Positions 24,794 through 50,928 of a DNA stretch of 64,000 bases are shown one piece after another. Made by a program: the position numbers and the translations under genes. The first letter of the stretch is position 1, and the number at the start of each line of letters is the position of its first letter. The notes beneath the pieces are model-generated. The model saw only the letters and a list, made by a program, of their open reading frames with translations. It ran no database searches and had not been told where the DNA came from. Source of the DNA: Marinicella sp. (lineage in GTDB: Bacteria; Pseudomonadota; Gammaproteobacteria; Xanthomonadales; Marinicellaceae); the NCBI GenBank assembly GCA_965230295.1, contig OZ246001.1:2336001-2400000 (forward strand), written 5' to 3'.

Positions 24794-26680
24794 ATGAACC
24801 AACATAAGTATCGCTTAGATATTCAAGGACTGAGGGCAGTTGCTGTTCTGTTGGTGGTCTTTAATCACTTGGGAATGAATATGTTTTCAGGTGGTTTTGT
24901 CGGAGTTGACGTGTTTTTTGTGATCTCTGGATATGTTATTTCTTTGGTTATCTTAAAAGAGTTTGACGCATTCAACGGATTCGATTTCAAACGATTCTAT
25001 TTAAAACGCATTCAAAGGCTGGCACCTGCCTTGGCGGTGTTAATCATAACGGTTTCTTGGTTTGTGATGTTTCAATCTCAATGGGAAGCCGAGCAAATAA
25101 ACAATACCATAAAGACCTCTTACTTTGCTTTGCTGTGGGTCAGTAATTTTTATTATGCATTCAGGGATGTGGATTATTTTGACACATCCATTGGTGAAGA
25201 ATTGTTTCTACACACGTGGTCACTGGGCGTTGAAGAACAATTCTATTTGTTTTGGCCTGTCATTCTTATCTTGTTATTAACCCATATCGCTTCACCGAAG
25301 GCCAAAATTAAGTGGATTTCAGCGCTGGTTCTGATGTCCTTGCTGTTGCATTTTATGCTTTCCCAATTTGGCGATATGGTGTCTTTTTATATGATGCCAA
25401 CCAGAATGTGGCAATTCGGCCTGGGTGGGCTGGTTGCATTTTATCATTTTAAAGGCAAGTTCAATCAATCGCTGGCTCAAATCCAGTGGTTGGCACCCAT
25501 TGGATTGGTGACAATCGTATTAAGCGCAGTGATGCTGACAGAACATAGCCGATATCCATATTGGCAGGTGATGCCGCCAACGGTAGGTGCGGCCATGGTA
25601 GTCCTGGCGACAAACCCGTCTCAACTTGGATTCACAGCCAAGGTTTTATCTCTCAAGCCAATGGTTTGGATTGGGAACCTATCCTATTCAATTTATCTGT
25701 GGCATTGGCCACTGGTTTACTTGGTTTTTGATTATTATGCAATGTCAGGGTTATGGGCCGGGTATGTTTTGTACTTCCTGCTCACTATGTCTTTATCAGC
25801 GATGAGTTTTTATCTGGTAGAAAACCCAACCCGGAAGTATCAGTTTCCAGATGCCGTTGGGTTTGTTAAAAAGGCTGTTTTTGTCAGTAGCCTGTTTGCG
25901 ATCACATTATTGATGATCCAATTCTCAAATAATTATTTCAATGGAAGCATCAGAAAAAACCAGCCAGTTAAGTATGTTGCTGCTCATGACAAGCCAGAAA
26001 TTTATAACATGGATTGTGATAGTTTTTACCACAATGATGACTTAACTCCATGTGTTTTTGGAAATGACAAGGCTGAGAACCATGTGGTTTTAATGGGCGA
26101 TTCTGTTGGCATGCAATGGTTTTCCACAGTGAAGGAAAAGTACCTGTCAATGGGATGGAAGCTCACGGTATTAACAAAGTCAAGCTGTCCACTCATTGAA
26201 ATACCTTTTTATTATCGAGTGGTTAAGTCAACTTATGATGTCTGTGACAGTTGGAAAGAGAAGGTGTATCAATACATTTTATCTATCAACCCAGATCTGA
26301 TCATTTTAGGAAATGCCAGTAATTACCCGTTTGATGAGTCGCAATGGAAACAAGGCTTGAGACAACTATTTGAAAAGCTCAGGCCAATAAAAAGTGTTGT
26401 TAAATTTGTGATCAGTTCACCCATCAATGCAGGTTGTGTTCAACAAGAGAATCAGGCTGGGCACTGTCAGTTTGTACCTGCTCAATCAGAACAATTTAAA
26501 TGGCAAAAAGAAGTGATTGCTGAGTTTACTGAAGTCAGTGTCATTGATTTGACTGAATATATATGTCCTGATGGGCTGTGCAGTGATCAAATGGGTGACA
26601 TGATCGTGTTTCGGGATAAAACTCATTTGACTGATACTTACGTCAGATCTTTGTATCAAAAAATCCAGCCATATTTTTAG
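24794..26680 (+). CDS. OafA-like acyltransferase_3 + SGNH O-acetyltransferase
   Basis: YRLDIQGLRAVAV, GGFVGVDVFFVISGY, HTWSLGVEEQFY, SYSIYLWHWP; SGNH GDS and DxxH (RDKTH). Confidence 0.9.
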   Translation: MNQHKYRLDIQGLRAVAVLLVVFNHLGMNMFSGGFVGVDVFFVISGYVISLVILKEFDAFNGFDFKRFYLKRIQRLAPALAVLIITVSWFVMFQSQWEAEQINNTIKTSYFALLWVSNFYYAFRDVDYFDTSIGEELFLHTWSLGVEEQFYLFWPVILILLLTHIASPKAKIKWISALVLMSLLLHFMLSQFGDMVSFYMMPTRMWQFGLGGLVAFYHFKGKFNQSLAQIQWLAPIGLVTIVLSAVMLTEHSRYPYWQVMPPTVGAAMVVLATNPSQLGFTAKVLSLKPMVWIGNLSYSIYLWHWPLVYLVFDYYAMSGLWAGYVLYFLLTMSLSAMSFYLVENPTRKYQFPDAVGFVKKAVFVSSLFAITLLMIQFSNNYFNGSIRKNQPVKYVAAHDKPEIYNMDCDSFYHNDDLTPCVFGNDKAENHVVLMGDSVGMQWFSTVKEKYLSMGWKLTVLTKSSCPLIEIPFYYRVVKSTYDVCDSWKEKVYQYILSINPDLIILGNASNYPFDESQWKQGLRQLFEKLRPIKSVVKFVISSPINAGCVQQENQAGHCQFVPAQSEQFKWQKEVIAEFTEVSVIDLTEYICPDGLCSDQMGDMIVFRDKTHLTDTYVRSLYQKIQPYF

Positions 26681-26707: not shown

Positions 26708-28474
26708 TCAGTTCAGTGAATATTTCAACAACAGTTGATCAGCTGATTTAATTTGTAAAGTCATTGGCGCTGCCGCATCTTCAGCTTTTACTTCAAATTG
26801 TAGCAAATGGAAGTTTGTACTATTCAATGATTTAAAAATGGGATTGTTGCCCAGTGGTGACGTGGTTAAAGATACAGGAATTTCTGTGTTTGAATCAGAA
26901 GATTGGGGGTGTATTGTGAGTGCCAGTGCTTGATGTTTAGATTTAACAACCCAACCTTTAAGGGAGCCATCACTTATTTCATGATACACCACAGGGGGCA
27001 TCATGCATTGACCTCCTCCAGCCTTAAAAAAATGAAAGTTTTTCAGCCCGTCATTCAATACAAAAGTATCTATCAGCTTCATCCCGTTTAAGTACGCACA
27101 TGCTGATTGGTAAAAGTCAATTTGTTCATTCAATTTCAAGGATGAATGTTCAATCAGCACCAGCTCTGTGGTTGTTGATTCGGCATGGATCAAATCCATC
27201 AGCATCAATTGTCTAGCGCGTCCATGTTTTTCATTCAATGGGTGCGGTAGTGATTTGATGGTTTTGGCCCGTTTTGAGTAAAAAGTCAGCTCAGCCAATG
27301 TTTTAAACTGATCAACCACCAAGGTGCTGGCTTGTTCCTGATGCAATAGTTCATCTGCCTTGTTAGTGATTTCCTGCCACCCCACAGCATTGCTGATAAT
27401 TCTGGTTTTTAAAAGTGAGTTGGCAGTGGATCCATGTAGCCATATTTGCATGATTAGAAGTGCTGCAAAGGTCGCTACAACACCACTGGCCCAAGCCCAC
27501 TGTTTAACCGGAGAAGGTTTGTTGTTGGCAGCAGCCACCAATAACAGCACATAGGAAACCAAGGTCCAATGAATGTTGAGTCGTAAATTATCTGAAAAAA
27601 AACCCACCACCGCGTACATCATCCAATGTAAGGTTGCAGTATATGTGATGCTTTTAAGTAAAGGCTGCTTGCGTGTACCGGTTGAGCCCTGCAATATAGT
27701 CTGGAAGCAAAGCCAGAAAACTATCGGCGTGGTGATGAGAATTTGTATGAACAGGAAACTGGCGTGAGAAGCCTGGAATTCCCACGGGTGTCGATCTTTG
27801 AGTTGAAATGCCAACAACACAAAATCATGTTGTAAATTAAATACAATGATTGGTATGAAGCCGATTAACATCAGAGGCAGTGAGTATTTCAGGAGTGGTA
27901 TCACAACTTTCTGCTGTTTTCTGTAAACCCACAAAAAGACCAGCCCAGTAAGTAAAACAACAATCCAAAACCTTAGGTGCACATTGATGCCTGCTGCCAG
28001 CATGACCCCCAACCACAAATAAAAGTGTATCTGGTTGGTATTGATGGCTTTGGCAAGAAACAACATGGCCAACAGGGTGAAGAAGACAATCCATATATCA
28101 GGAATGGCCAAACCTCCAGCGATACCCAATAAAGGCAGTGCCGAGACCAACAAGCCTGTGAGCCATTTATTGTGTTCACTGGCATCGATCTCGTTAGCCA
28201 ATTGCATGGCCAGCCAAGGCATGCTCAAGGCAGCCAGCAGATTGGGTATTCTGATGAAAAATTGGTGTCGAGGAAATATCCAATCAGACAAGGCCAAAGT
28301 CCATGGTGTCCAACCTGGTACTTCACTGTAAGACCAATTTAACCACTGGCCTTCAAGCCAATAAAATGCCTCATCTACGAACAATTGGTTTTTATAGGCA
28401 GCATATATTTGCAGCAAACTGATCAGCACATATACGCTGAAGAAATAAAGCTTGGCTTTATCAGGCTTCAGCAT
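26708..28474 (-). CDS. ArnT/PMT-family (GT-C) membrane glycosyltransferase
   Basis: LFVDEAFYW after TM1, IRIP, AIPD; about 11 TMs plus a periplasmic C-domain. Confidence 0.75.
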   Translation of the reverse strand: MLKPDKAKLYFFSVYVLISLLQIYAAYKNQLFVDEAFYWLEGQWLNWSYSEVPGWTPWTLALSDWIFPRHQFFIRIPNLLAALSMPWLAMQLANEIDASEHNKWLTGLLVSALPLLGIAGGLAIPDIWIVFFTLLAMLFLAKAINTNQIHFYLWLGVMLAAGINVHLRFWIVVLLTGLVFLWVYRKQQKVVIPLLKYSLPLMLIGFIPIIVFNLQHDFVLLAFQLKDRHPWEFQASHASFLFIQILITTPIVFWLCFQTILQGSTGTRKQPLLKSITYTATLHWMMYAVVGFFSDNLRLNIHWTLVSYVLLLVAAANNKPSPVKQWAWASGVVATFAALLIMQIWLHGSTANSLLKTRIISNAVGWQEITNKADELLHQEQASTLVVDQFKTLAELTFYSKRAKTIKSLPHPLNEKHGRARQLMLMDLIHAESTTTELVLIEHSSLKLNEQIDFYQSACAYLNGMKLIDTFVLNDGLKNFHFFKAGGGQCMMPPVVYHEISDGSLKGWVVKSKHQALALTIHPQSSDSNTEIPVSLTTSPLGNNPIFKSLNSTNFHLLQFEVKAEDAAAPMTLQIKSADQLLLKYSLN

Positions 28475-29839: not shown

Positions 29840-30292
29840 ATGAATTTATTCAGTTCGATCAAATCAATGCTTCAAATTGGTCAATCAAATAAGCAACTGA
29901 ATGATACAGAACAACAAGAATTGAATCACGCCATTGTTGAGTTAATGTTGGAAATGGTGCGGGCAGATTTTGTAGAACTGTATGCTGAAAAAACAGCCTT
30001 ATCCGAGTACCTTTCCAGTAAGTTGGGCCTGTCAAAACAAGACGTGGCACAGTATATTGAGGTGGCAGAAATGCGAACAGACTTTTCAATTTCCCTTGAA
30101 TCTCAAACCAATGTCATCAATAATTACTTGGGTAGTGTGCAGAAGCTTGACTTGATGCAACACATGTGGGCATTGGCTGTGGCAGACAATGAAGTCCACT
30201 TGTTAGAACAAAATTTATTTTATAAGGCGGGACAGTTGTTAGGCATCAAAAAGCCACAACTTGACGAGATTTGTCAATCCGTGGATCTTTAA
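29840..30292 (+). CDS. TerB-family protein
   Basis: LMLEMVRAD...EK, MWALAVADNEVHLLE; start MNLF at 29840. Confidence 0.75.
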   Translation: MNLFSSIKSMLQIGQSNKQLNDTEQQELNHAIVELMLEMVRADFVELYAEKTALSEYLSSKLGLSKQDVAQYIEVAEMRTDFSISLESQTNVINNYLGSVQKLDLMQHMWALAVADNEVHLLEQNLFYKAGQLLGIKKPQLDEICQSVDL

Positions 30293-30314
30293 CCCAAGCA
30301 ATTTAAGGAATATT

Positions 30315-31403
30315 ATGGATTTAACACATTTTTTAAAAACCATGCGTGAAATGAATGGTTCTGACATGTATCTCAGTACCGGTGCTCCGATTAACGTAAA
30401 GGCTGAAGGTGTGCTTCAATCCTTGAGCAGTACCGGCTTGCCACCAGGTATAGTAGAAAAGATTGCCTATTCATTGATGGATGAGAGGCAGATCAAAGAA
30501 TTTGAAGACACGATGGAATGTAATCTGGCTGTTTCTATCAAAGGTGTGGGTCGTTACCGGGTCAATGTGTTCAGACAACGGGGTGAAGTCTCCATGGTGA
30601 TCCGAACCATCAAAAGCACCATTCCTAAGTTGGAAGAGTTGAACATGCCACCGCATTTGTATGATTTAATCATGGAAAAGCGGGGCTTGATCTTGGTGGT
30701 GGGTGCCACAGGTTCTGGTAAATCTACCACCATGGCTTCAATGATTGATCACCGTAATTCAAGCATTACGGGTCACATCCTGACAGTTGAAGATCCCATT
30801 GAATACGTTCACAAGCACAAAAAATCTGTGATCAATCAACGAGAAATCGGTATCGACACCTTAGGGTATGCGCCGGCTTTGAAAAATGCCTTGCGTGAAG
30901 CCCCGGATTTGATTTTGATTGGTGAGATCAATGACGCTGAAACCATGGAAGCTGCAGTTTCATTTGCTGAAACTGGTCATTTATGTATGGCCACACTGCA
31001 TGCCAACAATTCAGACCAAGCCATGGAGCGGGTGTTGAACTTTTTCCCCAATGACATGCATAACAACGTGTTGATGAATCTGGCATTGAACTTACGAGCA
31101 GTCATTTCACAACGATTGGTGATTGATGTTGATGGCAAACGCCGTCCGGCATGTGAAGTTTTGATGAACACCCCACAAATCAGGGAAATGATCAGAAGGG
31201 GAGAAATCAATGAATTGAAAATGGCGATGGAAAAGTCATTGGAAGATGGTATGCAAACATTTGACCAAGCCTTATATGATATGTACAAAGAAGGTATCAT
31301 TACATTAGAAGAAGCCTTGGGTAATGCCGATTCAGCACAAGGACTTGAAGTGCGAATTAATCTATCGAGTGAAGATGATACCGGTGGCGATGATTATTTT
31401 TGA
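30315..31403 (+). CDS. pilU: PilT/PilU-family type IV pilus retraction ATPase (PilU-like)
   Basis: GATGSGKST, EDPIEY, NALREAPD, AETGHL...TLHAN, GMQTFDQ; lacks the PilT AIRNLIRE motif; AAGGA SD before 30315. Confidence 0.88.
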   Translation: MDLTHFLKTMREMNGSDMYLSTGAPINVKAEGVLQSLSSTGLPPGIVEKIAYSLMDERQIKEFEDTMECNLAVSIKGVGRYRVNVFRQRGEVSMVIRTIKSTIPKLEELNMPPHLYDLIMEKRGLILVVGATGSGKSTTMASMIDHRNSSITGHILTVEDPIEYVHKHKKSVINQREIGIDTLGYAPALKNALREAPDLILIGEINDAETMEAAVSFAETGHLCMATLHANNSDQAMERVLNFFPNDMHNNVLMNLALNLRAVISQRLVIDVDGKRRPACEVLMNTPQIREMIRRGEINELKMAMEKSLEDGMQTFDQALYDMYKEGIITLEEALGNADSAQGLEVRINLSSEDDTGGDDYF

Positions 31404-31559
31404 TCACACAGCCTCTTACTGAGTATGCCTGTCATGAGTTGTCTCAGAACAGTTCGTGGTCAATTCAACATGAGAAAAAATCAAGTCAACAATGTGACAT
31501 TGTAGTTGAGTCTTGTCCTCTGTTCGATGGCTAAAATAACGCATGCCTATCACAAAATC

Positions 31560-31588
31560 GTGACAACTTCATGAATTAACCATACAAT
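31560..31588 (+). promoter_or_regulatory. Candidate sigma70 promoter for the YIDPG cassette
   Basis: GTGACA-N17-TACAAT about 30 nt before the ATG. Confidence 0.55.
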
Positions 31589-31620
31589 AGCCCCGTTTAA
31601 AAGATACGAACCAACAACCT

Positions 31621-31836
31621 ATGAAGTTACTTATCTCAATGTTTGTTTTAATGCTCATGATGACTCCTGGCGTGGCTTTTGCCTATATTGATCCAGGTTC
31701 AGGAAGTGCAATCATGTCTGCGATAATCGGATTTTTTGTGGCGATTGGGTTGGCCATCAAAACCTATTGGTACAAATTAAAATCTTTGTTTGGGAAAAAG
31801 GATAAAGAAATCGAGTCAACTGAAGACAAAGAATAA
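31621..31836 (+). CDS. Small 'YIDPG' membrane protein (signal peptide, one TM, charged tail)
   Basis: 71 aa: hydrophobic leader ending AFA, then YIDPGSGS, TM helix, basic WYKLKSLFGKK and acidic tail. Confidence 0.8.
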   Translation: MKLLISMFVLMLMMTPGVAFAYIDPGSGSAIMSAIIGFFVAIGLAIKTYWYKLKSLFGKKDKEIESTEDKE

Positions 31837-31864
31837 CTGAAATTTAATAAAAGGAAGTCGTTAT

Positions 31865-32524
31865 ATGACAGACAAAGACATTGAGTTTAATAAACATTAT
31901 TGGGATGACTTTTATAAGCATAAGCACAGAATCATTCCATCACAGTTTTGTGTTTGTGTGCTGACCGAGTTGAACCGTGAGGCTTCAGTGGTGGAATTGG
32001 GAAGTGGCAATGGTCGAGATTCTTTGTACTTTGCCAGTAAAGGCTGTTCAGTTACATCCATGGACCTGTCTCATGAAGCCATCAGCCAATCAAACAAAAG
32101 AGCGGAAGCAGAAGGGTTGAATGGCACCCGTTTTTTCCAAGGAGACTTAACGTCCAAAAAAGACATCAGCAGGACGGTGGATCACGCACGAAAATCGAAT
32201 GAAAATCAACCCATTACTTTTTACTCCAGGTTCGTGATGCATTCGCTTGACGACGAACAAGAACAGGCCTTTTTGAAAGTGATGGGCCATTGTGTAAAAG
32301 CAGGTGAACACATTTATTTCGAGTTCAGGTCTGCGGAAGATGCCGCATTAGACAAGCATTTTGGTGGTCATTTCAGGCGATATGTAAATACTGAAACCTT
32401 CAAAAAAAGATTGAGCGATGAAGGGTTCAAAATTGAATATGAGATCATTGGGCAAGGCATGGCTAAATATAAAGAGGAAGATCCTTTCGTGGCCAGATTC
32501 ATCGCCAAAAAACTGGATCCTTAA
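31865..32524 (+). CDS. Class I SAM-dependent methyltransferase
   Basis: YWDDFY, VVELGSGNGRDS, FYSRFVMHSL, HFRRY; AGGA SD. Confidence 0.85.
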   Translation: MTDKDIEFNKHYWDDFYKHKHRIIPSQFCVCVLTELNREASVVELGSGNGRDSLYFASKGCSVTSMDLSHEAISQSNKRAEAEGLNGTRFFQGDLTSKKDISRTVDHARKSNENQPITFYSRFVMHSLDDEQEQAFLKVMGHCVKAGEHIYFEFRSAEDAALDKHFGGHFRRYVNTETFKKRLSDEGFKIEYEIIGQGMAKYKEEDPFVARFIAKKLDP

Positions 32525-32548
32525 ACACACAATACATCAAAGGCAGCC

Positions 32549-33691
32549 ATGTTTCGGTTTTTCAAATATTTAAAAAATGTCATTGCATTTAATCAGCTGC
32601 CCAGAAAAACAAGAACTGTCGTTTTTTATTCAGAAGGAAAAAACTATTGGGTGCATTTACAGGGGCTGGTTAATGAATTGCTGAACACCCATAAAGTCCC
32701 TGTTTGCTATGTCAGTTCAAACGACAACGATCCTGGTTTGGCCATGCAACACCCCAATTTTCACAGTTTCCTGATTGATGAGGGATGGATCCGGAATTGG
32801 TGGTTTGAAAATTTAGAAGCTGATATGTTGGTGCTGTCTATGCCGGACATTCACCAGTATCAGGTCAAAAGGTCAAAACACCCTGTGCATTATGTTTATG
32901 TACAACATTCATTGGTCAGTAAGCACATGGTTTATCGTGAAGGCGCATTTGACCACTATGATTCAATCTTCTGTGCGGCACCACATCATTTCAAGGAAAT
33001 CAGGGCCATAGAGTCCTTGTACAACTTGAAACCCAAAAATTTGTATGAACACGGCTATGCCAGGTTGGATTCAATCCTAAAAAATGCCCAACAGAATAGA
33101 AATAATGAATCCGCACACAGCGCTAAGCCGCATGTACTCATTGCACCTTCTTGGGGCGAAGTTAATGTGGTGGAAGATTATGGCCAACAGATTATTGAGA
33201 CTTTGTTGAATCACAATTACAAAGTCACGTTAAGACCTCACCCTCAAACCATCAAGTTTTCTAAGAATACAATTGATGCGTTGGTCAGTCAATTTTCAAC
33301 AAACCCGGACTTCTCCTTTGAGGGGAATGTTGATGGCGAGGCCTCATTACACATGTCTGATGTCATGATCAGTGATTGGTCTGGGGCAGCACTGGATTAT
33401 GCTTTTGGACTCGGCAAGCCTGTGTTGTTCCTGGATGTGCCCAGAAAAGTCAATAACCCGGAATACGAAAAATTGGGAATCGAGCCGTATGAAGTGATGA
33501 TCCGTGAGAAAATTGGACGTGTGATCAGCGTGGATCAAGTTGATGAGATCCATCACTCAATTGAAGCTTGTTTGGAAAAACATAAAACAGCACCTTATGA
33601 ACATGATATTTTCAACCTCGGAAAATCTGATGAAGTGGGTGCCCGGTTACTGATAGATATATCTGCCAAATTGGAACATGAAGAAGGTTAA
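32549..33691 (+). CDS. CDP-glycerol glycerophosphotransferase (TagB/TagF-like, GT-B) family protein
   Basis: VQHS, GYARLD, LIAPSWG, LRPHPQ, SDVMISDWSGAALDYAF..GKPVLF. Confidence 0.8.
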   Translation: MFRFFKYLKNVIAFNQLPRKTRTVVFYSEGKNYWVHLQGLVNELLNTHKVPVCYVSSNDNDPGLAMQHPNFHSFLIDEGWIRNWWFENLEADMLVLSMPDIHQYQVKRSKHPVHYVYVQHSLVSKHMVYREGAFDHYDSIFCAAPHHFKEIRAIESLYNLKPKNLYEHGYARLDSILKNAQQNRNNESAHSAKPHVLIAPSWGEVNVVEDYGQQIIETLLNHNYKVTLRPHPQTIKFSKNTIDALVSQFSTNPDFSFEGNVDGEASLHMSDVMISDWSGAALDYAFGLGKPVLFLDVPRKVNNPEYEKLGIEPYEVMIREKIGRVISVDQVDEIHHSIEACLEKHKTAPYEHDIFNLGKSDEVGARLLIDISAKLEHEEG

Positions 33692-33694
33692 TCT

Positions 33695-34822
33695 TTGATG
33701 CAAGTTAAACACCTGAACAGCTTTTTTCTATTCTTGTTATTGCTGTTTCCATTGCAGTCAAATGCCAGTATTTCAAATAAAAAAACCGTCAATAGCCAGC
33801 ATGAATTAAAGGCCCAAATAGACAGACAAATCCGCGAGTCCTATGATTTTTTTGGCTTGGCAATTTATTTAAACCAAATTCATTTCTTTTCATACACTGA
33901 TCAACAGCTGATGCCATTGGCCTCAGACGATTCTGTGGTTGAATTGGGTCGTGATTCGAGCCTGTTGGTTGTCGGTAGGTTTAATGTCTTGATCCTGCAA
34001 GCAGATGGTCAAATCATAAACCTTAAAGAAGGTGAGATTAAGTTTGATACATCGGCCAGTCATCCTTTGCAGTACCGTGTCGTTTCAAAACCTGAAGTGG
34101 GCCTAGTCAATGAAGCGTATGAGTCATTGAGGTATCACCAGCTGTATACACCACTGGCGGCGTTATCCAGAGGCTTGGAATGGGTATTGAGGTCACTGGG
34201 TAATCATATGAATTGGGGGTTTGCCATCATTGTCATGGCCGTTTTGATCAAGATTTTACTGATCCCGATCAATGTGCTGACCGTCAGATCACAAAGAAAA
34301 GTCAGTCAGGTTCAAGCAAAATTAATGCCTGAATTGGCCGAAATCAAAGCAAACTTTGATGGAGAAGAAGCCCATAACAAGATAATGGCGGCCCACAAGC
34401 ATCATGGAGTTTCTCCATTTTTCACTTTGAAACCCTTGATGAGCACATTGATACAACTGCCGGTGTTGATTGCCGTCTTCAATGTTTTGGCTGAAATGCC
34501 TGAGTTACGTGGTGCAACATTTTTGTGGATTGGGGATCTGGCATACCCGGATGTGATTGTGCAATTTTCAAGTGGCATCAGTATGTTTGGTGACAAGATC
34601 AGTCTCTTGCCTGTACTCATGACGATCATCGCATTATTGGCCTCATATGCTTACAAGGATCAGCATTTACCTGAGCAAGCGGCCAAGGCCCAAAGGAAAA
34701 AACTGTTGCTGATGGCGATGGCGTTTTTTGTTTTGTTTTACCCCTTTCCGGCATCCATGGTCATGTATTGGGCCATGGCCAATCTACTCCAGTTTATTCA
34801 GCAGAATTTGATGCGCAGTTAA
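33695..34822 (+). CDS. Divergent YidC/Oxa1-family membrane insertase paralog
   Basis: NWGFAII...IKILLIP, cytoplasmic hairpin, IQLPVL, FLWIGDLAYPD, FPASMVMYW..NLLQ..QQ; short N-terminal periplasmic region; not in the rpmH-rnpA-yidC context. Confidence 0.85.
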   Translation: MMQVKHLNSFFLFLLLLFPLQSNASISNKKTVNSQHELKAQIDRQIRESYDFFGLAIYLNQIHFFSYTDQQLMPLASDDSVVELGRDSSLLVVGRFNVLILQADGQIINLKEGEIKFDTSASHPLQYRVVSKPEVGLVNEAYESLRYHQLYTPLAALSRGLEWVLRSLGNHMNWGFAIIVMAVLIKILLIPINVLTVRSQRKVSQVQAKLMPELAEIKANFDGEEAHNKIMAAHKHHGVSPFFTLKPLMSTLIQLPVLIAVFNVLAEMPELRGATFLWIGDLAYPDVIVQFSSGISMFGDKISLLPVLMTIIALLASYAYKDQHLPEQAAKAQRKKLLLMAMAFFVLFYPFPASMVMYWAMANLLQFIQQNLMRS

Positions 34823-34913
34823 ACACTGAACACACGCCAGTGATATGGTTTCAGGCCATAGATTTAAGGACTGGTGAATCATTTTTGCGCAATGTATTCT
34901 TGCCGATATACAT

Positions 34914-34942
34914 ATGACAAGTGATGAATTAGGAGCTATAAT
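34914..34942 (+). promoter_or_regulatory. Candidate sigma70 promoter for wzm-wzt
   Basis: ATGACA-N17-TATAAT. Confidence 0.55.
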
Positions 34943-35116
34943 GCAGCGTCATTCATCATAGATTAGAAACCATAAAATCCAAAGCTTTCAGGAAAAACAT
35001 GTGGTCATTGAGCCGTCAAATTCTGGAGGACTGGTTTGATCACATATAAACAAATGCAGGATTTTAATAGACCATGATGACAGCCTGTCTGTTAATCACC
35101 AATTATCTCGAGCTTT

Positions 35117-35899
35117 ATGGAATTTTTCAAAGACATCTTAACTGGCTATAAGCGCAAAAGATTGTGGAAGAAGCTGGCCGTATTGGAATTGAAGAGTAGA
35201 TTCCAAGGTGCTTTTATCGGTACATTCTGGATTGTCTTGACCTTGATGATTAAAGTGGGCATGTTGTCACTTATCTACTCGATGGTACTGGAAAAAGACA
35301 TCAAAGATTATGTGTTGTTTTTGGCTTTGGGGCTGTTGACCTGGAATTTCATTTCTGCGGTGATCGTAACCAGCGGAAATATTTTCAGAAAAGCCGCCAA
35401 TTTTCTACAACAAATGGACTTGCCACATTCCATTTTTGTTTATCAAAACATTTATCGAGAAATTGTGTCGCTACTGATGTATCAGCTTTTTGCCATTCCC
35501 CTGGTCATCATCATCAAAGGTTGGGATTTTGTTGGTTTGATTTGGTTGTGGTCATTCCTGGGTTACTTGATCATCATTTTAAATGCATTTTTTGTCAGTA
35601 TGTGGCTGGGTTGGTTATCTGTTCGATTCAGAGATGTTCAGTCTTTATTAACCAGTTTGGTCATGATCATTTTCTTAGTAACCCCGATCCTGTGGCCGCC
35701 ACCTGAGCAATTTGCCGGTAGTTTGTATTTCCAACTCAATCCATTTTATCATTTGCTTGAATTAATCAGGTCGCCAATACTGCAAGGTGTTGTACCCGTT
35801 ACATCCTGGTATGTCAGTTTAGGGTTGTTGTCTTTCAATGTGTTAATTTGCGTGATGTTTTATCGCAGAGTCAAACACCGTTTGGTCTTGTGGTTGTAA
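35117..35899 (+). CDS. wzm: Polysaccharide ABC exporter permease (Wzm/TagG/KpsM family)
   Basis: ELKSRFQGAFIGTFW, RFRDVQ, FLVTPILW, LNPFYHLLELIR; 6 TMs. Confidence 0.9.
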   Translation: MEFFKDILTGYKRKRLWKKLAVLELKSRFQGAFIGTFWIVLTLMIKVGMLSLIYSMVLEKDIKDYVLFLALGLLTWNFISAVIVTSGNIFRKAANFLQQMDLPHSIFVYQNIYREIVSLLMYQLFAIPLVIIIKGWDFVGLIWLWSFLGYLIIILNAFFVSMWLGWLSVRFRDVQSLLTSLVMIIFLVTPILWPPPEQFAGSLYFQLNPFYHLLELIRSPILQGVVPVTSWYVSLGLLSFNVLICVMFYRRVKHRLVLWL

Positions 35900-35901
35900 T
35901 C

Positions 35902-36612
35902 ATGACGAGCATATCTTTAGAAAACATCACTTTTTCTTATAAATACTTTCCATCCATCAGCGGTGGACTACTGAAAAGCAATTCAGGCCTCAAAAGCCAG
36001 ACTGCTTTGTCAGATGTTAACCTACAAATTAACCATGGTGATCGGGTTGCCCTGTTGGGAACCAATGGTGCTGGTAAATCCACCTTGTTGAAAATAATCG
36101 CTGGCATTTACAAACCCGAAAAGGGTGAAGTAAAAACTGAAGGTCGGGTCTATACATTTCTGGGTAGGAATGTGGGTGTGATGCCCCAGCTTTCAGGGTA
36201 TGACAACCTCACTGTTAGGGGGTTGTTGCTTGATTTGCCTGATGATGTGATCGAAGAGAAAATTAAAAGCATTGTCGAGTTTACAGAGTTGGGTGATGGC
36301 ATTCATCGACCGGTTTCTACCTATTCAATGGGCATGCGGGCACGTTTGACTTTTGGTATGTTGATGTTTATTGATGCAGACATTCTGTTGATTGATGAAG
36401 GATTGGGTGCTGGAGATCAGTTTTTCCTGGAAAAGGCCCGTAGATTTATCAATGAATTGTTGGACAATTCAAAAATATTAATTTTTGCCAACCACTCTAA
36501 CCAATTGTTAAAGCAATTTTGTAACAAAGCATTGCTGGTTAATGAAGGACATATTTTGTCTTATGGTGCATTTGATGAAGTCTTGCATCAGTATAACCAT
36601 TTGAAAAAATAG
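35902..36612 (+). CDS. wzt: Polysaccharide ABC exporter ATPase (Wzt/TagH/KpsT family), no C-terminal carbohydrate-binding domain
   Basis: GTNGAGKSTLLK, TYSMGMRARL, LLIDEGLGAGD..F; 236 aa from the ATG at 35902. Confidence 0.9.
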   Translation: MTSISLENITFSYKYFPSISGGLLKSNSGLKSQTALSDVNLQINHGDRVALLGTNGAGKSTLLKIIAGIYKPEKGEVKTEGRVYTFLGRNVGVMPQLSGYDNLTVRGLLLDLPDDVIEEKIKSIVEFTELGDGIHRPVSTYSMGMRARLTFGMLMFIDADILLIDEGLGAGDQFFLEKARRFINELLDNSKILIFANHSNQLLKQFCNKALLVNEGHILSYGAFDEVLHQYNHLKK

Positions 36613-36748: not shown

Positions 36749-37597
36749 GTGATTAATATAGTATCAGCTGTTAAAGATATGGTTCTTTCGGTCAAGAACT
36801 TCTTGGAAATGAACCCTGGAGTCAGAAGCATTTATGTTGGTGGGTATACCGCGTTGGTTAAACTGAAGTTTGGCCGAAGGTTATATGTTGACTCAAGAGA
36901 CATAGGGGTTGGTTCACATATCATGATCACAGGAGTGTGGGAAAAAAACTACACCGAATTGGTGAAAAAGCTGGTTAAAGAAGGCGACACCTTTGTCGAT
37001 GTGGGTGCAAACTTTGGTTACTACAGTGTGCTGGGCGGCCACCTGGTTGGGAATACAGGTCAAGTATTTGCATTTGAACCTAATCCGAGGCCATTCGAAT
37101 TACTCAGGATGTCAATGAAAGCCAATGGCTTCCTTAAGCCAAACGACTCAAATGTGTTTAAATTTGGTGTCTCTGATGCAGCTGGTGAAGCCTCATTCAA
37201 TTTCAAAGAAGGCGATTTTGGTGGTGGTTCAATGTTCATCCCAGAACAAAGACTGGAGACAGAAGAGTTTGCTACCATTGACATCAAAATTGACTCTTTG
37301 GATCAAATGCTGGATCATGTTGACTCAATCGATTTCATAAAGATCGATGCTGAAGGCAGTGAAGTGAATGTCATCAGAGGGATGAAGGAATTGATTCGAA
37401 GGTCTCCTAAGATAAAAATATTGATGGAGTTTTATCCTAATTTCATCAAGAAACACGTTTCTTTGTCTGAGTTCACTGATGAGCTTGAATCGATGGGTTT
37501 CCATTTCAACAAGGTGATCAATTCAAAATTGATCCCTGTGGCTGCCAGTGAACTACCCAATTTAGAAAACTGCTATTTGCTGTTAAGCAAATCCTGA
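36749..37597 (+). CDS. FkbM-family methyltransferase
   Basis: FVDVGANFGYYS, VFAFEPNP, FIKIDAEGSE; candidate promoter TTGCCA-N16-TACAAT at 36689-36716. Confidence 0.9.
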   Translation: MINIVSAVKDMVLSVKNFLEMNPGVRSIYVGGYTALVKLKFGRRLYVDSRDIGVGSHIMITGVWEKNYTELVKKLVKEGDTFVDVGANFGYYSVLGGHLVGNTGQVFAFEPNPRPFELLRMSMKANGFLKPNDSNVFKFGVSDAAGEASFNFKEGDFGGGSMFIPEQRLETEEFATIDIKIDSLDQMLDHVDSIDFIKIDAEGSEVNVIRGMKELIRRSPKIKILMEFYPNFIKKHVSLSEFTDELESMGFHFNKVINSKLIPVAASELPNLENCYLLLSKS

Positions 37598-37700
37598 AGA
37601 TCTGTGGCCATTAAACAGCGCTTGACAGCACTGATTCAAGGACTGGTTGAAAAACCATTAACTTCATCATGATTTTACCACCAAGTATCAGCGAGTAATT

Positions 37701-39677
37701 ATGTCCATTCAATACCGCAAAGACATAGATGGACTGAGGGCTTTGGCCGTTATTCCTGTGGTCTTGTTTCATTCTGGATTTCCTTTCTTTGAAGGTGGTT
37801 ATGTTGGCGTAGATATCTTTTTTGTGATCTCTGGATTCTTGATCACCAGTATTTTGATGAGACAATTGAATCAAGGTGCTTTCTCTATTGCAAACTTCTA
37901 TGAAAGGCGCATCAAAAGAATCTTTCCAGCTTTGTTCACAGTTTTGTTGGTGTCATCCATTGTTGCCATTTGGCTGATGTTGCCTGGTGAGTTTAAGCAG
38001 TTCAAACAAAGTATGGTTTCGGCTTTGTTCTTTTTCTCTAATTATTTCTTCATGTTTGATGTGGGGTATTTTGCCGACCCTGCAGAAACCAAGCCTTTGT
38101 TACACATGTGGTCTTTGGCTGTTGAAGAACAGTTTTATGTGTTGTTTCCTGTCTACTTGTTTTTGGCCTTTAAATATTTCAGGAAATACCTGGGTATAGT
38201 TACCTTACTGTTGTTTTTATTGTCATTTATTTACAGTGTCGTCTTGGTTGAATACCGTCCAGGCGATGCTTTTTATTCAACACCGGTCAGGGCATGGGAG
38301 TTGATGATAGGTTCTCTATTGGCCATCTATCCGAACAGGTCATTATTGGCCCATAAAAATGTAGCCAATGCACTGTCTTTGAGCGGTTTGTTATTGATCA
38401 TATATGCTGTGGTTTTTTTCGATAAGACCACCCCATTTCCAGGCTATATGGCCATGATTCCAGTGATGGGCTCTGCGTTGATTTTGTTTGCAGCTCATCA
38501 TCAGGGTAATTATGTGGGTCGTTTATTATCCACGCCGGTCTTCAGGTTTTTTGGGTTGATTTCCTACTCGTTGTATCTTTGGCACTGGCCTGTGTTGGCT
38601 TTTGCGCGATTGTATTCATTGGGGTCTCATCCTGACGATTTGATGCCCATGTTATTGGTATTGATGATTGTCCTTTCATTCTTGAGTTGGCAATTTGTAG
38701 AAAAACCATTCAGAAGTGGTCAGTTGTTAAATCCCAACAGTAAGGTGTTGCTCAATCGTTACAGCGGGTCTTTGTTGGTCTTGTTTGTGACTTTGACTGC
38801 TTTGGCTTTTTCTGATTACCGACGTGCTGTCAAGCGAGAACACCGTTCGCATAGGGAGGCCAGAGTACTCAGTAAGCCCATGGAATTGAATCAATGTGAT
38901 CATTACAAAGGTTCATCACGTAATCTGAACCTGTGTTTTATTGGAGACGTTAATAACCCTGAAATCAGTTTTGCGATGCTGGGAGATTCTCATGCATTTG
39001 CATTGATGCCTGGGGTGTATGATTCTGCCCAGTCTCATGGGAAGAAAGGCATTTTTATTGGAAGCGGCGGGTGTATCGGCTTATTTGGAGTGACCCGCGA
39101 AAAACAAGGCTTTGAGCATTGTAAATCGAGGATGGATGCATTTGCAGAGTACATCGCTACACAACCTGGTATTAAACAAATCCTCATAGCTTCCAGGTGG
39201 GGGACGTATACCACAGGTAAAAGATATAAAAACACCATCGGTGATTCGTTTTACATCAGCGATGAACAAACCAAGCAAATTTCATTCGAAGAAAATAAAT
39301 TGGTCTTTGAACGGGGCTTTGAGCATACCATTGAATTTTTAAAAGGACTTAATAAAGAAATCACTGTGATCACACAGGTGCCTGAGAGTGAATACAGCAG
39401 CCTCGATATCATCAGGGCCAAGCGATTAAATAGATCGGTTGACTTCCGGCCCAAAGTCACAGAATATATGGCACGTCAAAAAATAGCCACGGATGTGTTT
39501 ATGAAGTATGAAGCCAGTGGCGACATTGACTTGATACCTGTGCATGAAAGCATGTGTGGATTAACACACTGTGTGGTGTTCGATGGTGGCAAATCCATTT
39601 ATATAGACAACAACCACATTTCCAGAACTTATGCCAAGAAATTATCACCCATCTATGATTACTTGTTTGAAGAATGA
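37701..39677 (+). CDS. OafA-like acyltransferase_3 + SGNH O-acetyltransferase
   Basis: YRKDIDGLRALAV, GGYVGVDIFFVISG, HMWSLAVEEQFY; GDSHA and DNNH. Confidence 0.9.
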   Translation: MSIQYRKDIDGLRALAVIPVVLFHSGFPFFEGGYVGVDIFFVISGFLITSILMRQLNQGAFSIANFYERRIKRIFPALFTVLLVSSIVAIWLMLPGEFKQFKQSMVSALFFFSNYFFMFDVGYFADPAETKPLLHMWSLAVEEQFYVLFPVYLFLAFKYFRKYLGIVTLLLFLLSFIYSVVLVEYRPGDAFYSTPVRAWELMIGSLLAIYPNRSLLAHKNVANALSLSGLLLIIYAVVFFDKTTPFPGYMAMIPVMGSALILFAAHHQGNYVGRLLSTPVFRFFGLISYSLYLWHWPVLAFARLYSLGSHPDDLMPMLLVLMIVLSFLSWQFVEKPFRSGQLLNPNSKVLLNRYSGSLLVLFVTLTALAFSDYRRAVKREHRSHREARVLSKPMELNQCDHYKGSSRNLNLCFIGDVNNPEISFAMLGDSHAFALMPGVYDSAQSHGKKGIFIGSGGCIGLFGVTREKQGFEHCKSRMDAFAEYIATQPGIKQILIASRWGTYTTGKRYKNTIGDSFYISDEQTKQISFEENKLVFERGFEHTIEFLKGLNKEITVITQVPESEYSSLDIIRAKRLNRSVDFRPKVTEYMARQKIATDVFMKYEASGDIDLIPVHESMCGLTHCVVFDGGKSIYIDNNHISRTYAKKLSPIYDYLFEE

Positions 39678-39767
39678 TGATCATTTGATTGATTGATGTG
39701 GTTTTGAAACAACCCAAATTAGCAGCATTCTGATAGAATAACGAGCTTGCTTTGCAAATTAAAAAAT

Positions 39768-40742
39768 ATGTTAAATCTAAAAAAACAATTTTCAATTCCC
39801 AAAAAACAATTGAGTGAATGGTATTCACGCAGTGTTGCAGAAAGGAATGAATTGAATAACCAGTTCATTGATAGCAAGTTAATTGACTGGGAAGAGATGA
39901 AGGACAATACCCCGGTCAGAAAAATCAAACCATTTCATGTCAAAACCAACGTGGTGTTTTTTCATATTCCCAAGACTGCAGGGACCACATTAGATTTTGT
40001 GATCAGCAAAAACTTACCCATTTGGGGTATTTTTAAACAACATGGAGCTGATTTCGATCGAAATGTTGCGGCTTTTTATAAGTCTGGCGATGGGCCCAAA
40101 ACAGTCATGGGCCACAATGAACTGAACGATTATTTTTATCAACTTTTAACCAGAGAGCGATTGATACACATCACCACCATCAGAGAGCCAGTGGCTCGAG
40201 TGGTTTCATATTATGATTTTCTACGGGCACAGCCTGCCCACCCAAGCCATCATTTGGCGGTCAATATGTCATTGGCGGAGTTTGTCCAGTCACCTAAGTC
40301 AGACGAAGTCAATAATGCACAGTCATACAGGTTACTTGGTCTGTTAAAACACAATCAATATAAATCAGAAAAAAGGTCCGAACAAGAATTGATAGAAGCC
40401 AGTATCAAACAACTTTCTGATCGGTTTACCTTGTTTGGCACCACTCGCCAATTCGATGCCTTTCTATTGATGATGTCAAAATTGATGAACTGGCAAGATG
40501 TCTATTATAAAAAACAAAATGTAACCAATAAAAAGTTCAAAACTGATTTGAATGATGTGCCAGAAGAAGTCATACAAATCATTAAAGAATACAACAAAGT
40601 AGATATAGGGCTTTATGATCAGGCAGAGCAATTGTTCGATAAGCGGGCGGCTGAGTTGAACATCACAGATGAAGTGGTTGAAGCTTATCGTGCCAGGAAT
40701 AAAAAATACCAAGCCCTTATCGTCCAAAATCAAAAGTTTTGA
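39768..40742 (+). CDS. Sulfotransferase (family 2-like domain)
   Basis: FFHIPKTAGTT and IREPVARVVSYY; start codon uncertain (ORF opens at 39747). Confidence 0.85.
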   Translation: MLNLKKQFSIPKKQLSEWYSRSVAERNELNNQFIDSKLIDWEEMKDNTPVRKIKPFHVKTNVVFFHIPKTAGTTLDFVISKNLPIWGIFKQHGADFDRNVAAFYKSGDGPKTVMGHNELNDYFYQLLTRERLIHITTIREPVARVVSYYDFLRAQPAHPSHHLAVNMSLAEFVQSPKSDEVNNAQSYRLLGLLKHNQYKSEKRSEQELIEASIKQLSDRFTLFGTTRQFDAFLLMMSKLMNWQDVYYKKQNVTNKKFKTDLNDVPEEVIQIIKEYNKVDIGLYDQAEQLFDKRAAELNITDEVVEAYRARNKKYQALIVQNQKF

Positions 40743-40826
40743 TGGCGATATGAAAGCCTATATAATTTAATCAATTGAAGCTGGAGTTTAATCAATTCTG
40801 GGTTTATAAAATGGTAAGCATATAAA

Positions 40827-42122
40827 GTGATGAATAAGAAGATGAATATTCTGGTTGATGGATTCAATTTAGGTTTGAAAAAGGGTTCAGGCATCAAAAC
40901 TTATGGCATGACTTTGTTGGATGCTTATGAGCTGCTGGATCATGAAGTTGGAATTTTGTTGGATAACCAATTCCTGACCGGTAAAGATCAATTGTTAGAC
41001 GAGGTCAGTTTGTTCGATCAGGATGAAATCAGACCCAAGGCCATGTTTGATTTTCGCCTGCTCAGCCACATCAAAACCCTCAGTTACTATTTCAGAAAAA
41101 GAAAAGGCAATTATGTAGTGCCTAAAATCACTGAGCCAGATCCGGAAAATTATTTGTCTCATGTGGGCGGTAAGAAATACCACTATATTGAAAATATTGG
41201 AGATGTTTATAACACGGCCAACCGGTTGTTTGCAGTCACCAAAAAAATCACTCAATTAAAGCTCAAGAAACAACCCGATATCTTTCATTTAACCACACCA
41301 TGGCCCTTAACAGTCAAAGGAGCGAAAACTGTGGTCACCATTCATGATTTAATCCCTTTGAAAATACCGTTCACCACTTTAGATTTGAAAGTCCATTTTT
41401 ATGAACTATTTAAATGGGCAGCTACCACAGCTGATCTGATATTGGCTGTATCCGAACATACCAAACAGGACATCATGGAAATTTATGATGTACCTGAAGA
41501 AAAGATCAAAGTGACTTATCAATCTTACAAAGGTGGCAACATTGAGATTAAGAAAGAAGACGCCGCCGTCTATCTGAAATCTAAGCAGTTAGAGGCTGAG
41601 AAGTACATTTTATTCGTTGGTAACATCGAGCCTAAGAAAAACATCAAGCAATTGATCAGGGCGTTTGCATACATCAAAAAAGGTTATAAATTGGCCATAG
41701 TTGGTCATAAAGCTTGGATGTCTGACTCACAATTGGTTGGGCTGAAAAGCTATCTAAAGAAAAAAGAATATGTGATGTTGGACTATGTCACTGAAGAAGA
41801 ATTGGCCATGTTGTATGGTAATGCTTTTTGTATGGTGTTCCCATCATTGTACGAAGGTTTTGGCTTGCCAGTCCTGGAAGCCATGCAAAACAATTGCCCA
41901 GTCATTTGTTCTGATCGATCTTCGTTGCCTGAAGTGGCTGGAGATGCGGCTTTGTATGTTGACCCTTATAAGTTCACAGACATCAGAGATCAGTTAGATA
42001 AACTGATCGCCGATCCTCAATTACGTCAGGAAATGATCGAAAAGGGCAAAGCACGGGTTGAATTTTTCAGTCCAGAAAATTATGCCAGACGATTGCACGA
42101 GGCCTATGAAGGCCTCATCTAA
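40827..42122 (+). CDS. GT4 glycosyltransferase (MtfB/WbpX-like)
   Basis: SGIKTY, VTIHDLIP, VGNIEPKKN, FPSLYEGFGLPVLEAM. Confidence 0.9.
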   Translation: MMNKKMNILVDGFNLGLKKGSGIKTYGMTLLDAYELLDHEVGILLDNQFLTGKDQLLDEVSLFDQDEIRPKAMFDFRLLSHIKTLSYYFRKRKGNYVVPKITEPDPENYLSHVGGKKYHYIENIGDVYNTANRLFAVTKKITQLKLKKQPDIFHLTTPWPLTVKGAKTVVTIHDLIPLKIPFTTLDLKVHFYELFKWAATTADLILAVSEHTKQDIMEIYDVPEEKIKVTYQSYKGGNIEIKKEDAAVYLKSKQLEAEKYILFVGNIEPKKNIKQLIRAFAYIKKGYKLAIVGHKAWMSDSQLVGLKSYLKKKEYVMLDYVTEEELAMLYGNAFCMVFPSLYEGFGLPVLEAMQNNCPVICSDRSSLPEVAGDAALYVDPYKFTDIRDQLDKLIADPQLRQEMIEKGKARVEFFSPENYARRLHEAYEGLI

Positions 42123-50724: not shown

Positions 50725-50928
50725 CCTCTGAATTTTCAAATTTTTATACTAATTTCTTTTGAATAGTACTGAAAACTTGAATTGTTTTTATAGATATTTG
50801 CATCAAAAATCTCAATATTCAATTCTATATTTAGGGTTCAAAAAACTAATTCTAAATTCGACTTTTATTAGATAATGTAAAATGAACAAGAATTATGTAA
50901 TTAATAATAAAAAATACTGGAGAATGCT

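Follow-up and report, generated by a model that had tools for sequence, protein, structure and literature searches.

Small capped phosphoryl groups decorate the capsule of Campylobacter jejuni, where the O-methyl phosphoramidate (MeOPN) genes span Cj1415-Cj1422. Reports on this system describe a decoration of the glycan that depends on a donor activated by a cytidine nucleotide, on transferases dedicated to the task, and on two methyltransferase genes; Cj1418, which was once annotated as phosphoenolpyruvate (PEP) synthase or pyruvate phosphate dikinase (PPDK), is a glutamine kinase that acts together with Cj1416 and Cj1417 to make cytidine diphosphoramidate (PMC11800397, PMC6429109, and PMC10971088). 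A review of 2019 describes phosphoramidate sugars as known only from Campylobacter. Here, we analyze a four-gene cassette in a stretch of 64,000 nucleotides from Marinicella sp. (assembly GCA_965230295.1, contig OZ246001.1, positions 2,336,001 to 2,400,000; this whole stretch is called the window below) that encodes an exported microprotein, a methyltransferase, a TagB/TagF-like transferase, and a paralog of the membrane protein insertase YidC. We propose that this cassette is the reduced, methyltransferase-carrying version of a modular inner-membrane system that would attach a small, capped phosphoryl group to a target in the envelope, a reading that we consider evenly poised between right and wrong.

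Three-part periplasmic decoration systems such as Gtr and Arn consist of a cytoplasmic loader, a passage through the membrane, and a periplasmic transferase, and by analogy the gene content described below suggests a two-sided pathway of this kind. For surface phosphonates, the published logic is activation with CMP, and two phosphonate genomics studies name LicD-like transferases, glycosyltransferases, and sulfatases; their main texts mention neither YidC nor TagF (the word “insertase” was checked in one of them). A microprotein with a decoration role is known in DltX of teichoic acid D-alanylation, which uses an extracellular, invariant Tyr as a shuttle for D-Ala and whose motif is fused to the enzyme in related systems (PMC12148441). 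YidC and other insertases have moreover been reported to scramble lipids, and a conduit role of a YidC-family protein is therefore conceivable.

The four genes lie one behind the other on the plus strand. They encode a microprotein of 71 amino acids (aa; 31621-31836), a class I S-adenosylmethionine-dependent methyltransferase of 219 aa (MT; 31865-32524) in what we call the variable donor/tailoring slot, a TagB/TagF-family CDP-dependent phosphotransferase-like protein of 380 aa (here called GPT; 32549-33691), and a YidC/Oxa1-family paralog of 375 aa when read from a TTG (YidC2; 33695-34822). An alternative ATG start of YidC2 at 33698 gives 374 aa, in agreement with a database copy of this protein (P0001, 374 aa). 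An earlier reading of the sequence alone, the sequence-only reading, had reported four co-oriented genes with gaps of 28, 24, and 2-3 nucleotides (nt); all four indeed fall on the plus strand within 31621-34822, with gaps of 28, 24, and 3 nt (6 nt with the ATG start of YidC2).

These genes keep company far beyond Marinicella. Scanning one genome per species with an alignment of YidC2 yielded 55 YidC2 loci from Pseudomonadota (Gammaproteobacteria, Alphaproteobacteria, and Burkholderiaceae), SAR324, Bacteroidota (Flavobacteriales), Bdellovibrionota (Bdellovibrionales), and Acidobacteriota, and their open reading frames (ORFs) were labeled by BLASTP against the proteins of the window and of loci L013, L016, L031, and L037. 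In 34 of these loci, here called the full-flank loci, YidC2 is flanked by 5 kb or more on either side. GPT is found in 31 of them, the microprotein in 30, a sulfatase-like gene in 25, a ~1000-aa glutamine kinase-like (GlnK-like) gene in 15, and MT in 13. This co-occurrence bears out the earlier view that the four genes form a conserved unit and not a chance neighborhood. The core of the system consists of the microprotein, the TagF-like GPT, and a YidC-family protein, usually joined by a membrane sulfatase-like protein with a conserved Thr. To our knowledge, microprotein, YidC paralog, and sulfatase-like partner are absent from the C. jejuni capsule locus.

What changes from locus to locus is the content of the slot. 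The methyltransferase of the window matches Methyltransf_25 (1.2e-09) and TehB-like models. Over all 55 loci, MT occurs in 20 and the GlnK-like gene in 19, never together, and a 450-480-aa FmtL-like gene accompanies the GlnK-like gene in 13 loci and MT in none. In locus L013, three genes fill the slot between microprotein and GPT, encoding a 995-aa GlnK-like protein, a Peptidase_C26-type glutamine amidotransferase (GATase), and a nucleoside triphosphate (NTP) transferase. The 995-aa protein combines PPDK_N and PEP-utilizers domains and reaches 1024.8 bits with NF004508 (cut-off 501), and the best NCBIfam match of the GATase is gamma-glutamyl-CDP-amidate hydrolase (NF045546) with 137 bits, under the equivalog cut-off of 250. 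This phosphoramidate gene set occurs in 18-19 of the 55 related loci, with the hydrolase under its equivalog cut-off. These relatives of the cassette thus share with the C. jejuni MeOPN genes a Cj1418-type protein, an amidate-hydrolase-like GATase, and an NTP transferase, placed directly upstream of GPT; no Cj1415-type kinase was recognized in them. In the GlnK-like proteins of ~1000 aa (L013:347-1000 and homologs), the NF004508 match spans residues 211-994 only, and Pfam recognizes nothing in the additional ~210 aa at the N-terminus. This extension could stand in for the missing kinase. Conversely, the C. jejuni capsule-locus genes named in the accessible text of the reports include no microprotein, YidC paralog, or sulfatase-like partner.

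A third slot module, found in L019 and L100, consists of a cytidylyltransferase-PEP mutase fusion, a phosphonopyruvate-decarboxylase-like thiamine pyrophosphate enzyme, and an iron-dependent alcohol dehydrogenase, i.e., parts shared with PntC-Ppm phosphonate tailoring that stand here beside GPT. Judging from its genes, it would be a CMP-hydroxyethylphosphonate-type module, which fits the published CMP activation of surface phosphonates. Unlike C. jejuni, the window genome has none of the three phosphoramidate genes, and its slot holds the methyltransferase alone; no match to the GlnK-like model NF004508 or to NF045546 rises above cut-off in this genome, where the weak matches fall in other genes. 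The window has no phosphonate genes either. A phosphonate pathway elsewhere in the genome was considered and rejected, as the sole match to the PEP-mutase family (PF13714) is a PrpB-type gene beside a citrate-synthase-family gene (a PrpB/PrpC-type pair).

In a tree of GPT (42 rows, IQ-TREE), the methyltransferase and phosphoramidate versions interleave, with starred branches that force at least 4 changes for the methyltransferase label and at least 5 for the phosphoramidate label and with L022 (phosphoramidate) and L016 (methyltransferase) as sisters (100/96). GPT has thus stayed nearly the same while the content of the slot was exchanged more than once. The same alternation can be seen at one genomic site: in loci labeled Marinicella, the position after pilT and beside glycan genes holds either the methyltransferase version (the window and L014) or the phosphoramidate version (L044), and a pilT gene of 90-93% identity precedes the cassette in L014 and L044. 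Such alternation is reminiscent of the serotype-like variation of surface-glycan loci and makes the surface-glycan context that had been suggested for the cassette plausible.

GPT is the sole PF04464 (Glyphos_transf) gene of the genome, with 47.4 bits at a cut-off of 22.1. Its AlphaFold2 (AF2) model (pLDDT 90.4) has a TagF-like GT-B fold, and the best matches in the Protein Data Bank (PDB) are TagF (3l7i, E 5e-14), App3 (8qoy), and TarL (8va1). Family score and fold together secure the TagB/F-like identity that had first been read from the sequence. A sequence search of the PDB gave nothing useful for GPT, which is 15-17% identical in sequence to solved members of the family. All 27 rows of a GPT alignment keep two histidines, H120 and H231 (the latter within the sequence R-P-H-P-Q), which are candidate counterparts of the catalytic histidines of TagF.

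Besides PF04464 and the GT-B fold, GPT would share with TagB, TagF, and TarL a place of action on the cytoplasmic side of the membrane, because it follows a transmembrane (TM) helix and a basic segment in the gene fusions described below. However, unlike wall teichoic acid systems and TagF-like capsule polymerases, the cassette holds no gene for the synthesis of CDP-glycerol or CDP-ribitol, and unlike TagB, TagF, and TarL, relatives of GPT are linked to donor modules that make phosphoramidate or phosphonate nucleotides and to a dedicated microprotein as its putative anchor. Since the donors linked to GPT elsewhere are small groups activated by cytidine nucleotides, GPT most likely transfers a single small capped phosphoryl-X unit rather than a polyol-phosphate polymer. 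The polyol-phosphate chemistry expected in the sequence-only reading is probably not what these loci perform, given that the place of the methyltransferase is taken in relatives by CDP-phosphoramidate or CMP-phosphonate modules. The same reading had found no TagD-like cytidylyltransferase in the window, and the cassette indeed holds no cytidylyltransferase gene; the other genes of the window were scanned only in part, and the genome was not searched for cytidylyltransferases in general (PF01467 and PF12804 are too broad).

The microprotein has no Pfam or NCBIfam match, and homologs are present in 41 of the 55 YidC2 loci, with 43-62% identity across phyla. It is laid out as a signal-peptide-like leader ending in AFA, the segment YIDPGSGS, one TM helix, the juxtamembrane segment KTYWYKLK, and a charged tail. 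Ten positions are invariant in an alignment of 28 rows (Y22, D24, P25, G26, G28, S29, G37, A41, K47, and K52). The N-terminal 16-32 residues vary in sequence and always include a hydrophobic core, and the n-region of all 28 rows has at least one Lys or Arg; position -1 is Ala in 27 rows and Ser in one, and position -3 is Ala in 20, Val in 4, Ser in 3, and Gly in one. After this leader come the conserved blocks Y-I-D-P-G-S-G-S, the single TM helix, and K-T-Y-W-Y-K-x-K, followed by the variable, charged tail. The microprotein thereby has the features of a Sec/signal peptidase I signal peptide, i.e., a charged n-region, a hydrophobic core, and small residues at -3 and -1. It reads as a cleaved signal peptide followed by a mature peptide of ~50 aa that would begin, on the periplasmic side, with the invariant Tyr: Y22 directly follows the AxA-type site, and the charges of the protein predict an extracytoplasmic position for it.

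In this respect the microprotein is like DltX, i.e., a membrane microprotein with an invariant, predicted extracytoplasmic Tyr (Y22, 28 of 28 rows), and it would likewise serve a pathway that modifies an envelope polymer. However, its motif is N-terminal Y-I/L-D-P-G and not the C-terminal FxYxxF of DltX, the proposed chemistry is phosphoryl rather than acyl transfer, and the MBOAT and SGNH partners of DltX are not part of the core, where the partners are GPT, YidC2, and the sulfatase-like protein.

The microprotein family extends well beyond these loci. A profile search of 1.84 billion representatives found 7992 clusters at E<=1e-3, of which 797 reach E<=1e-10, and the best 150 clusters are all of 57-124 aa. 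Twelve distant microprotein-like genes (L084-L095) lie in genomes without a GPT match, and such distant homologs keep the Tyr-x-Asp-Pro start. In 9 of these 12 loci the microprotein stands beside homologous proteins of ~465 aa with weak methyltransferase-like matches, a sulfatase-like gene is found in 6, and a YidC-family gene (224 or 522 aa) in 2. Its presence near membrane enzymes in loci without GPT makes the microprotein a general partner of such enzyme sets and not of GPT only, and the loci with the ~465-aa protein are apparently a second, commoner system around the same microprotein. The FmtL-like protein of the phosphoramidate loci (466 aa) showed no significant similarity to this ~465-aa partner. 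In eleven of the loci (L084-L094, from genomes G101, G302, G105, G095, G249, G122, G287, G247, G196, G091, and G054), the microproteins are of the AY[ILV]DPG[ST]G type, and a sulfatase-like protein of 540-590 aa often accompanies them.

YidC2 scores 104 bits with PF02096 (cut-off 35) and 125.9 bits with TIGR03592 (cut-off 84.3). The sequence-only reading had proposed that a canonical yidC would exist elsewhere in the genome and that its own case would fall if this were the only copy. Such a gene was found: the genome, a single contig of 4.0 Mb, has between rnpA and mnmE a gene for a 576-aa YidC that matches both YidC_periplas and 60KD_IMP. YidC2 has neither a match to PF14849, the large P1 periplasmic domain, nor the rnpA-yidC-mnmE context, both of which the canonical copy has, and it is therefore a paralog and not the housekeeping gene. 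Its AF2 model (pLDDT 85.5) shows the full YidC core fold with five helices and the coiled-coil hairpin as in solved YidC. The best Foldseek match is E. coli YidC (6al2, E 2e-12), with further matches to 3wvf and 3wo6 (TM-score 0.73 on the target) and Bacillus halodurans YidC among the best, while the N-terminal periplasmic part is short (~130 aa) and beta-rich. K186, the positively charged groove residue of the first core helix, never varies among the 21 rows of a YidC2 alignment, nor among the 15 rows of the 375-aa type in a second one. The K186 column aligns with the Lys or Arg of canonical YidC copies and presumably corresponds to R366 of E. coli YidC. A quick tree of YidC cores (FastTree, midpoint-rooted), used solely to read the residue in the K186 column and for rough grouping and with the row of G025 disregarded (its longest ORF had been taken blindly), places Asn, Thr, or Ser at this position in fused and minimal YidC cores. 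As free YidC2 keeps the Lys that fused cores have lost, free and fused forms may differ in their job.

YidC2 thus shares core family, fold, and the conserved positive residue of the first core helix with canonical YidC and with the second YidC of Gram-positive bacteria. Unlike canonical YidC, however, it has only 375 aa with a ~130-aa beta-rich N-terminal domain, is patchily distributed, always occurs with the microprotein in the class sample introduced below, and is related to cores that are fused to sulfatase-like enzymes. A word-indexed search returned 294 relatives at E<=1e-3, mostly of 360-400 aa, and 7 of 24 genomes of the genus carry the gene. Five Halioglobus/Halieaceae records (L018, L027, L028, L063, and L066) have a YidC2 homolog without GPT or microprotein in the fetched flanks, and in L018 an 855-aa sulfatase/phosphodiesterase-like gene lies directly downstream of YidC2. 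In Marinicella litoralis (L014:10805-12214), a DltB-like MBOAT gene is found downstream of YidC2 (TIGR04091, 190.6 bits, under the cut-off of 375), flanked by a methyltransferase-like 442-aa gene and a family-less 372-aa gene.

Gene fusions tell which parts of the system belong together. The sequence-only reading had mentioned fusions of YIDPG segments and YidC domains to such transferases or to sulfatase-like domains in other phyla, and fusions of this kind do exist. A search for longer relatives of the microprotein found 9 proteins, among them P0277 and P0278 (443 and 450 aa), in which the microprotein is followed by GPT. To gauge how common the components are, we drew an even sample from the class of the window and scored 300 genomes for microprotein and YidC2 and 301 for GPT. 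The microprotein was found in 25 genomes (23 without the unpublished G078 and G334), GPT in 9, and YidC2-like proteins (at E<=1e-35, a threshold that misses short fused or minimal YidC cores) in 5, and all genomes with GPT and all with a YidC2-like protein fall inside the microprotein set. Four of the 9 GPT genes of the sample are microprotein-GPT fusions (G044, G120, G138, and G197), and all four genomes encode a second YidC core in a frame of 756-981 aa, which in G138 lies directly downstream of the microprotein-GPT fusion. The 981-aa protein of G120 combines a YidC core, many TM helices, and a sulfatase-like domain, and P0280 is of this type, with a YidC core joined to a multi-TM sulfatase-like part. 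Similarly, 23 of the 30 nearest ESM Atlas clusters are PF02096 proteins of ~950-1056 aa, and a Sulfatase domain is annotated in 14-38% of members in the three clusters shown (53, 298, and 76 members); the phyla listed for these YidC-sulfatase clusters are Pseudomonadota and Spirochaetota. A word search for longer forms with the YidC2 core of the window itself gave no fused form, which is weak evidence. The fusions therefore pair YidC with the sulfatase-like protein and the microprotein with GPT, and this pairing does not favor a simple private YidC for the microprotein. A compact phosphonate version is found in L100 (G120:C1:992500-1008000), with a cytidylyltransferase-PEP mutase of 449 aa, a decarboxylase-alcohol dehydrogenase fusion of 702 aa, the microprotein-GPT fusion of 410 aa, the YidC-sulfatase-like fusion of 981 aa, and two further giant sulfatase-like genes of 1108 and 1255 aa.

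The usual fourth partner is built from an N-terminal multi-TM part and an outer domain, as seen in 38 sulfatase-like proteins taken from the loci. Among these (in L013 numbering), D187, T224, H367, and D424-H425-G426 stand out as conserved, with T224 kept in 89% and D424-H425-G426 in 100%, and only 3 of 38 carry a formylglycine-type Cys/Ser-x-Pro-x-Arg motif. Such a pattern characterizes Thr-nucleophile phosphotransferases and phosphodiesterases of the alkaline-phosphatase superfamily like LtaS, EptA, OpgB, and PptA. The partner proteins share with LtaS, EptA/MCR, OpgB, and PptA the N-terminal multi-TM region, the conserved Asp, Thr, and His-Asp-His-Gly positions, and the general lack of the formylglycine motif. 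They differ from these enzymes in that they appear to be coupled to, or are fused with, a YidC core. Among solved structures, they have only marginal matches in sequence, with carrageenan sulfatases as the best (E 0.006), and the resemblance is therefore claimed at the level of the alkaline-phosphatase superfamily only.

Taken together, these parts would make up a pathway with steps on both sides of the inner membrane. The microprotein would be exported by means of its cleavable signal peptide, and its helix and KTYWYK juxtamembrane segment would tether the cytoplasmic GPT to the membrane. There, a cytidine nucleotide would supply phosphoryl-X, which GPT would transfer to a carrier or acceptor bound to the membrane, with X being NH2 or CH2CH2OH in the other versions of the system; in the version of the window, X would most simply be O-methyl (giving methyl phosphate), and the methyltransferase would act on the donor or the product. 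YidC2 would partner with a sulfatase-like transferase that is encoded elsewhere in the window genome, and it could either assemble this enzyme and the microprotein or offer its hydrophilic groove as a path by which the polar head group reaches the periplasmic leaflet. The final acceptor might be a glycan such as the polysaccharide exported by the adjoining Wzm/Wzt transporter or another envelope molecule. A more far-reaching form of this proposal is that a YidC-family protein is no longer just a protein insertase and has been recruited as a transmembrane conduit for phosphoryl-X, lipid-linked or on the Tyr of the microprotein, which would be loaded by the microprotein-anchored GPT and put in place by a Thr-nucleophile transferase of the alkaline-phosphatase type; this we think unlikely.

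Several observations weigh against the proposed decoration system as a reading of the window. The cassette itself includes no sulfatase-like gene, and the two sulfatase-like homologs of the genome are ~24% identical and far from the cassette, with one of them standing alone. The window genome has neither the phosphoramidate nor the phosphonate genes, so the donor of its version is a guess. YidC2 keeps the invariant Lys that is typical of working insertases, and the fused forms may not share its job. Among the full-flank loci, three of Halieaceae type (L018, L027, and L063) have neither GPT nor microprotein within 8 kb. As for the proposed link to exported glycans, no more than 9 of the 55 loci have wzm or wzt in the flank that was fetched, and a TagB-like enzyme in the cytoplasm could act directly on a glycan destined for ABC export, so that no step in the periplasm would be needed.

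This last thought leads to an alternative in which YidC2 is a mere insertase or chaperone for the microprotein and, where present, the sulfatase-like enzyme, while GPT and the methyltransferase put a cap or side group of the methyl-phosphate type on a lipid-linked glycan in the cytoplasm before its export by Wzm/Wzt, much as WbdD of E. coli O9a, a kinase-methyltransferase, terminates its polymer. The groove Lys kept in all 21 and 15 rows and the full YidC core fold speak for such a role, as does the microprotein, which resembles small YidC clients such as M13 procoat in having a leader, a short acidic stretch in the periplasm, a TM helix, and a tail of basic character. GPT is of TagB size with a TagF fold, and the cassette lies directly upstream of wzm/wzt in the window, with wzm or wzt present also in L014, L039, and L049. 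However, the genome already has its canonical YidC, insertion alone hardly explains why a core should be fused to its own client, the fused cores have lost the Lys, and the sulfatase-like periplasmic enzyme of 25 of 34 full-flank loci would not be needed by a cytoplasmic pathway. The scarcity of wzm and wzt across the 55 loci counts against this alternative as well, and we regard it as possible, if on the doubtful side.

By analogy with DltX, the microprotein might instead be the acceptor or covalent shuttle itself, with its Tyr or the following Ser carrying phosphoryl-X either as the end product or for hand-over to the sulfatase-like transferase. The invariance of Y22, D24, and P25 in 28 of 28 rows, the Tyr-x-Asp-Pro start of distant homologs, and the DltX precedent of an extracellular Tyr with motif-enzyme fusions are consistent with this idea, and so is the location of microproteins near sulfatase-like genes even where GPT is missing (6 of 12 loci without GPT, and 9 of 12 with the ~465-aa protein). 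It is improbable in our view, as gene fusions join the microprotein to GPT, in the cytoplasm, and not to a periplasmic enzyme, the crossing of the membrane by the group would be left unexplained, and the core has no DltX motif, MBOAT, or SGNH partner. That the genes are neighbors without a common function, or that the microprotein ORF is no gene at all, is hardly credible: a promoter match at chance level (see below) would agree with it, but it is contradicted by 43-62% identity of the microprotein across phyla with 10 invariant positions, by co-occurrence in 30-31 of 34 loci, and by the gene fusions.

All parts of the cassette belong to known families. Literature searches for YidC together with paralog, glycerophosphotransferase, sulfatase, or phosphonate returned no description of such a system. 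The cassette defines a widespread unannotated gene system, of which the microprotein family alone accounts for 7992 representative clusters (E<=1e-3). It joins a YidC paralog, an exported microprotein, and nucleotide-activated “rare phosphorus” chemistry, a link that was not found in searchable papers. These loci offer a genetic handle on phosphoramidate and phosphonate surface decorations outside Campylobacter and a natural test of the movement of lipids or head groups by insertase-family proteins in vivo, and the two-gene fused versions provide a compact system for reconstitution. If YidC-family proteins did serve as conduits, phosphoramidate decorations would be widespread in marine and sediment bacteria, and the case would be much more novel if either the conduit or the shuttle role of the microprotein proved true.

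In the model prediction of a complex between YidC2 and the mature microprotein (residues 22-71), run without controls, the score was 0.01, which speaks neither for nor against a contact between them. As for expression, the candidate promoter noted previously upstream of the microprotein gene (GTGACA-N17-TACAAT, 31560-31588, plus strand) does exist and matches the consensus at 10 of 12 positions. However, the region 31300-35200 has 9 promoter-like sites compared to 9.7 +/- 3.3 in shuffles, and the site by itself is therefore not above chance. A second promoter-like sequence (ATGACA-N17-TATAAT, 34914-34942, plus strand; 11 of 12, a consensus match only) lies in the 294-nt gap before wzm.

The glycan locus that had been reported downstream of the cassette is indeed there and begins after this gap. 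It opens on the plus strand with wzm (35117-35899, ABC2_membrane) and wzt (35848-36612, ABC_tran), i.e., the ABC exporter of a glycan, which score 148 bits with NF050109 and 227 bits with NF050108, respectively, both under the equivalog cut-offs. As listed, the wzt ORF begins with TTG and shares 52 nt with wzm. Because NF050108 matches only from residue 39 onward, translation of wzt probably starts further downstream. The rest of the locus (36749-44719, plus strand) encodes an FkbM methyltransferase, an AT3-SGNH acyltransferase, two sulfotransferase-family proteins, a GT4 glycosyltransferase, and an ORF of 472 aa (42058-43476) that overlaps the ends of its neighbors by 65 and 17 nt and has no Pfam or NCBIfam family. 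This ORF was considered as an FmtL-like protein or as the ~465-aa partner of other loci and rejected, as it has no similarity to them. Further downstream, a low-GC stretch follows glnD (50001-52146; 0.30 versus ~0.42), with an ORF of 405 aa inside (50929-52146) that has no Pfam family.

On its other side, the cassette is preceded by the gene of a PilT/PilU-like ATPase (30261-31403, plus strand, T2SSE), the synteny anchor used above. Still further upstream lie a second AT3-SGNH acyltransferase (24794-26680) and, next to it, a GT-C glycosyltransferase of PMT_2/ArnT-like type (26708-28474, minus strand), so that further envelope-modification genes flank the cassette.

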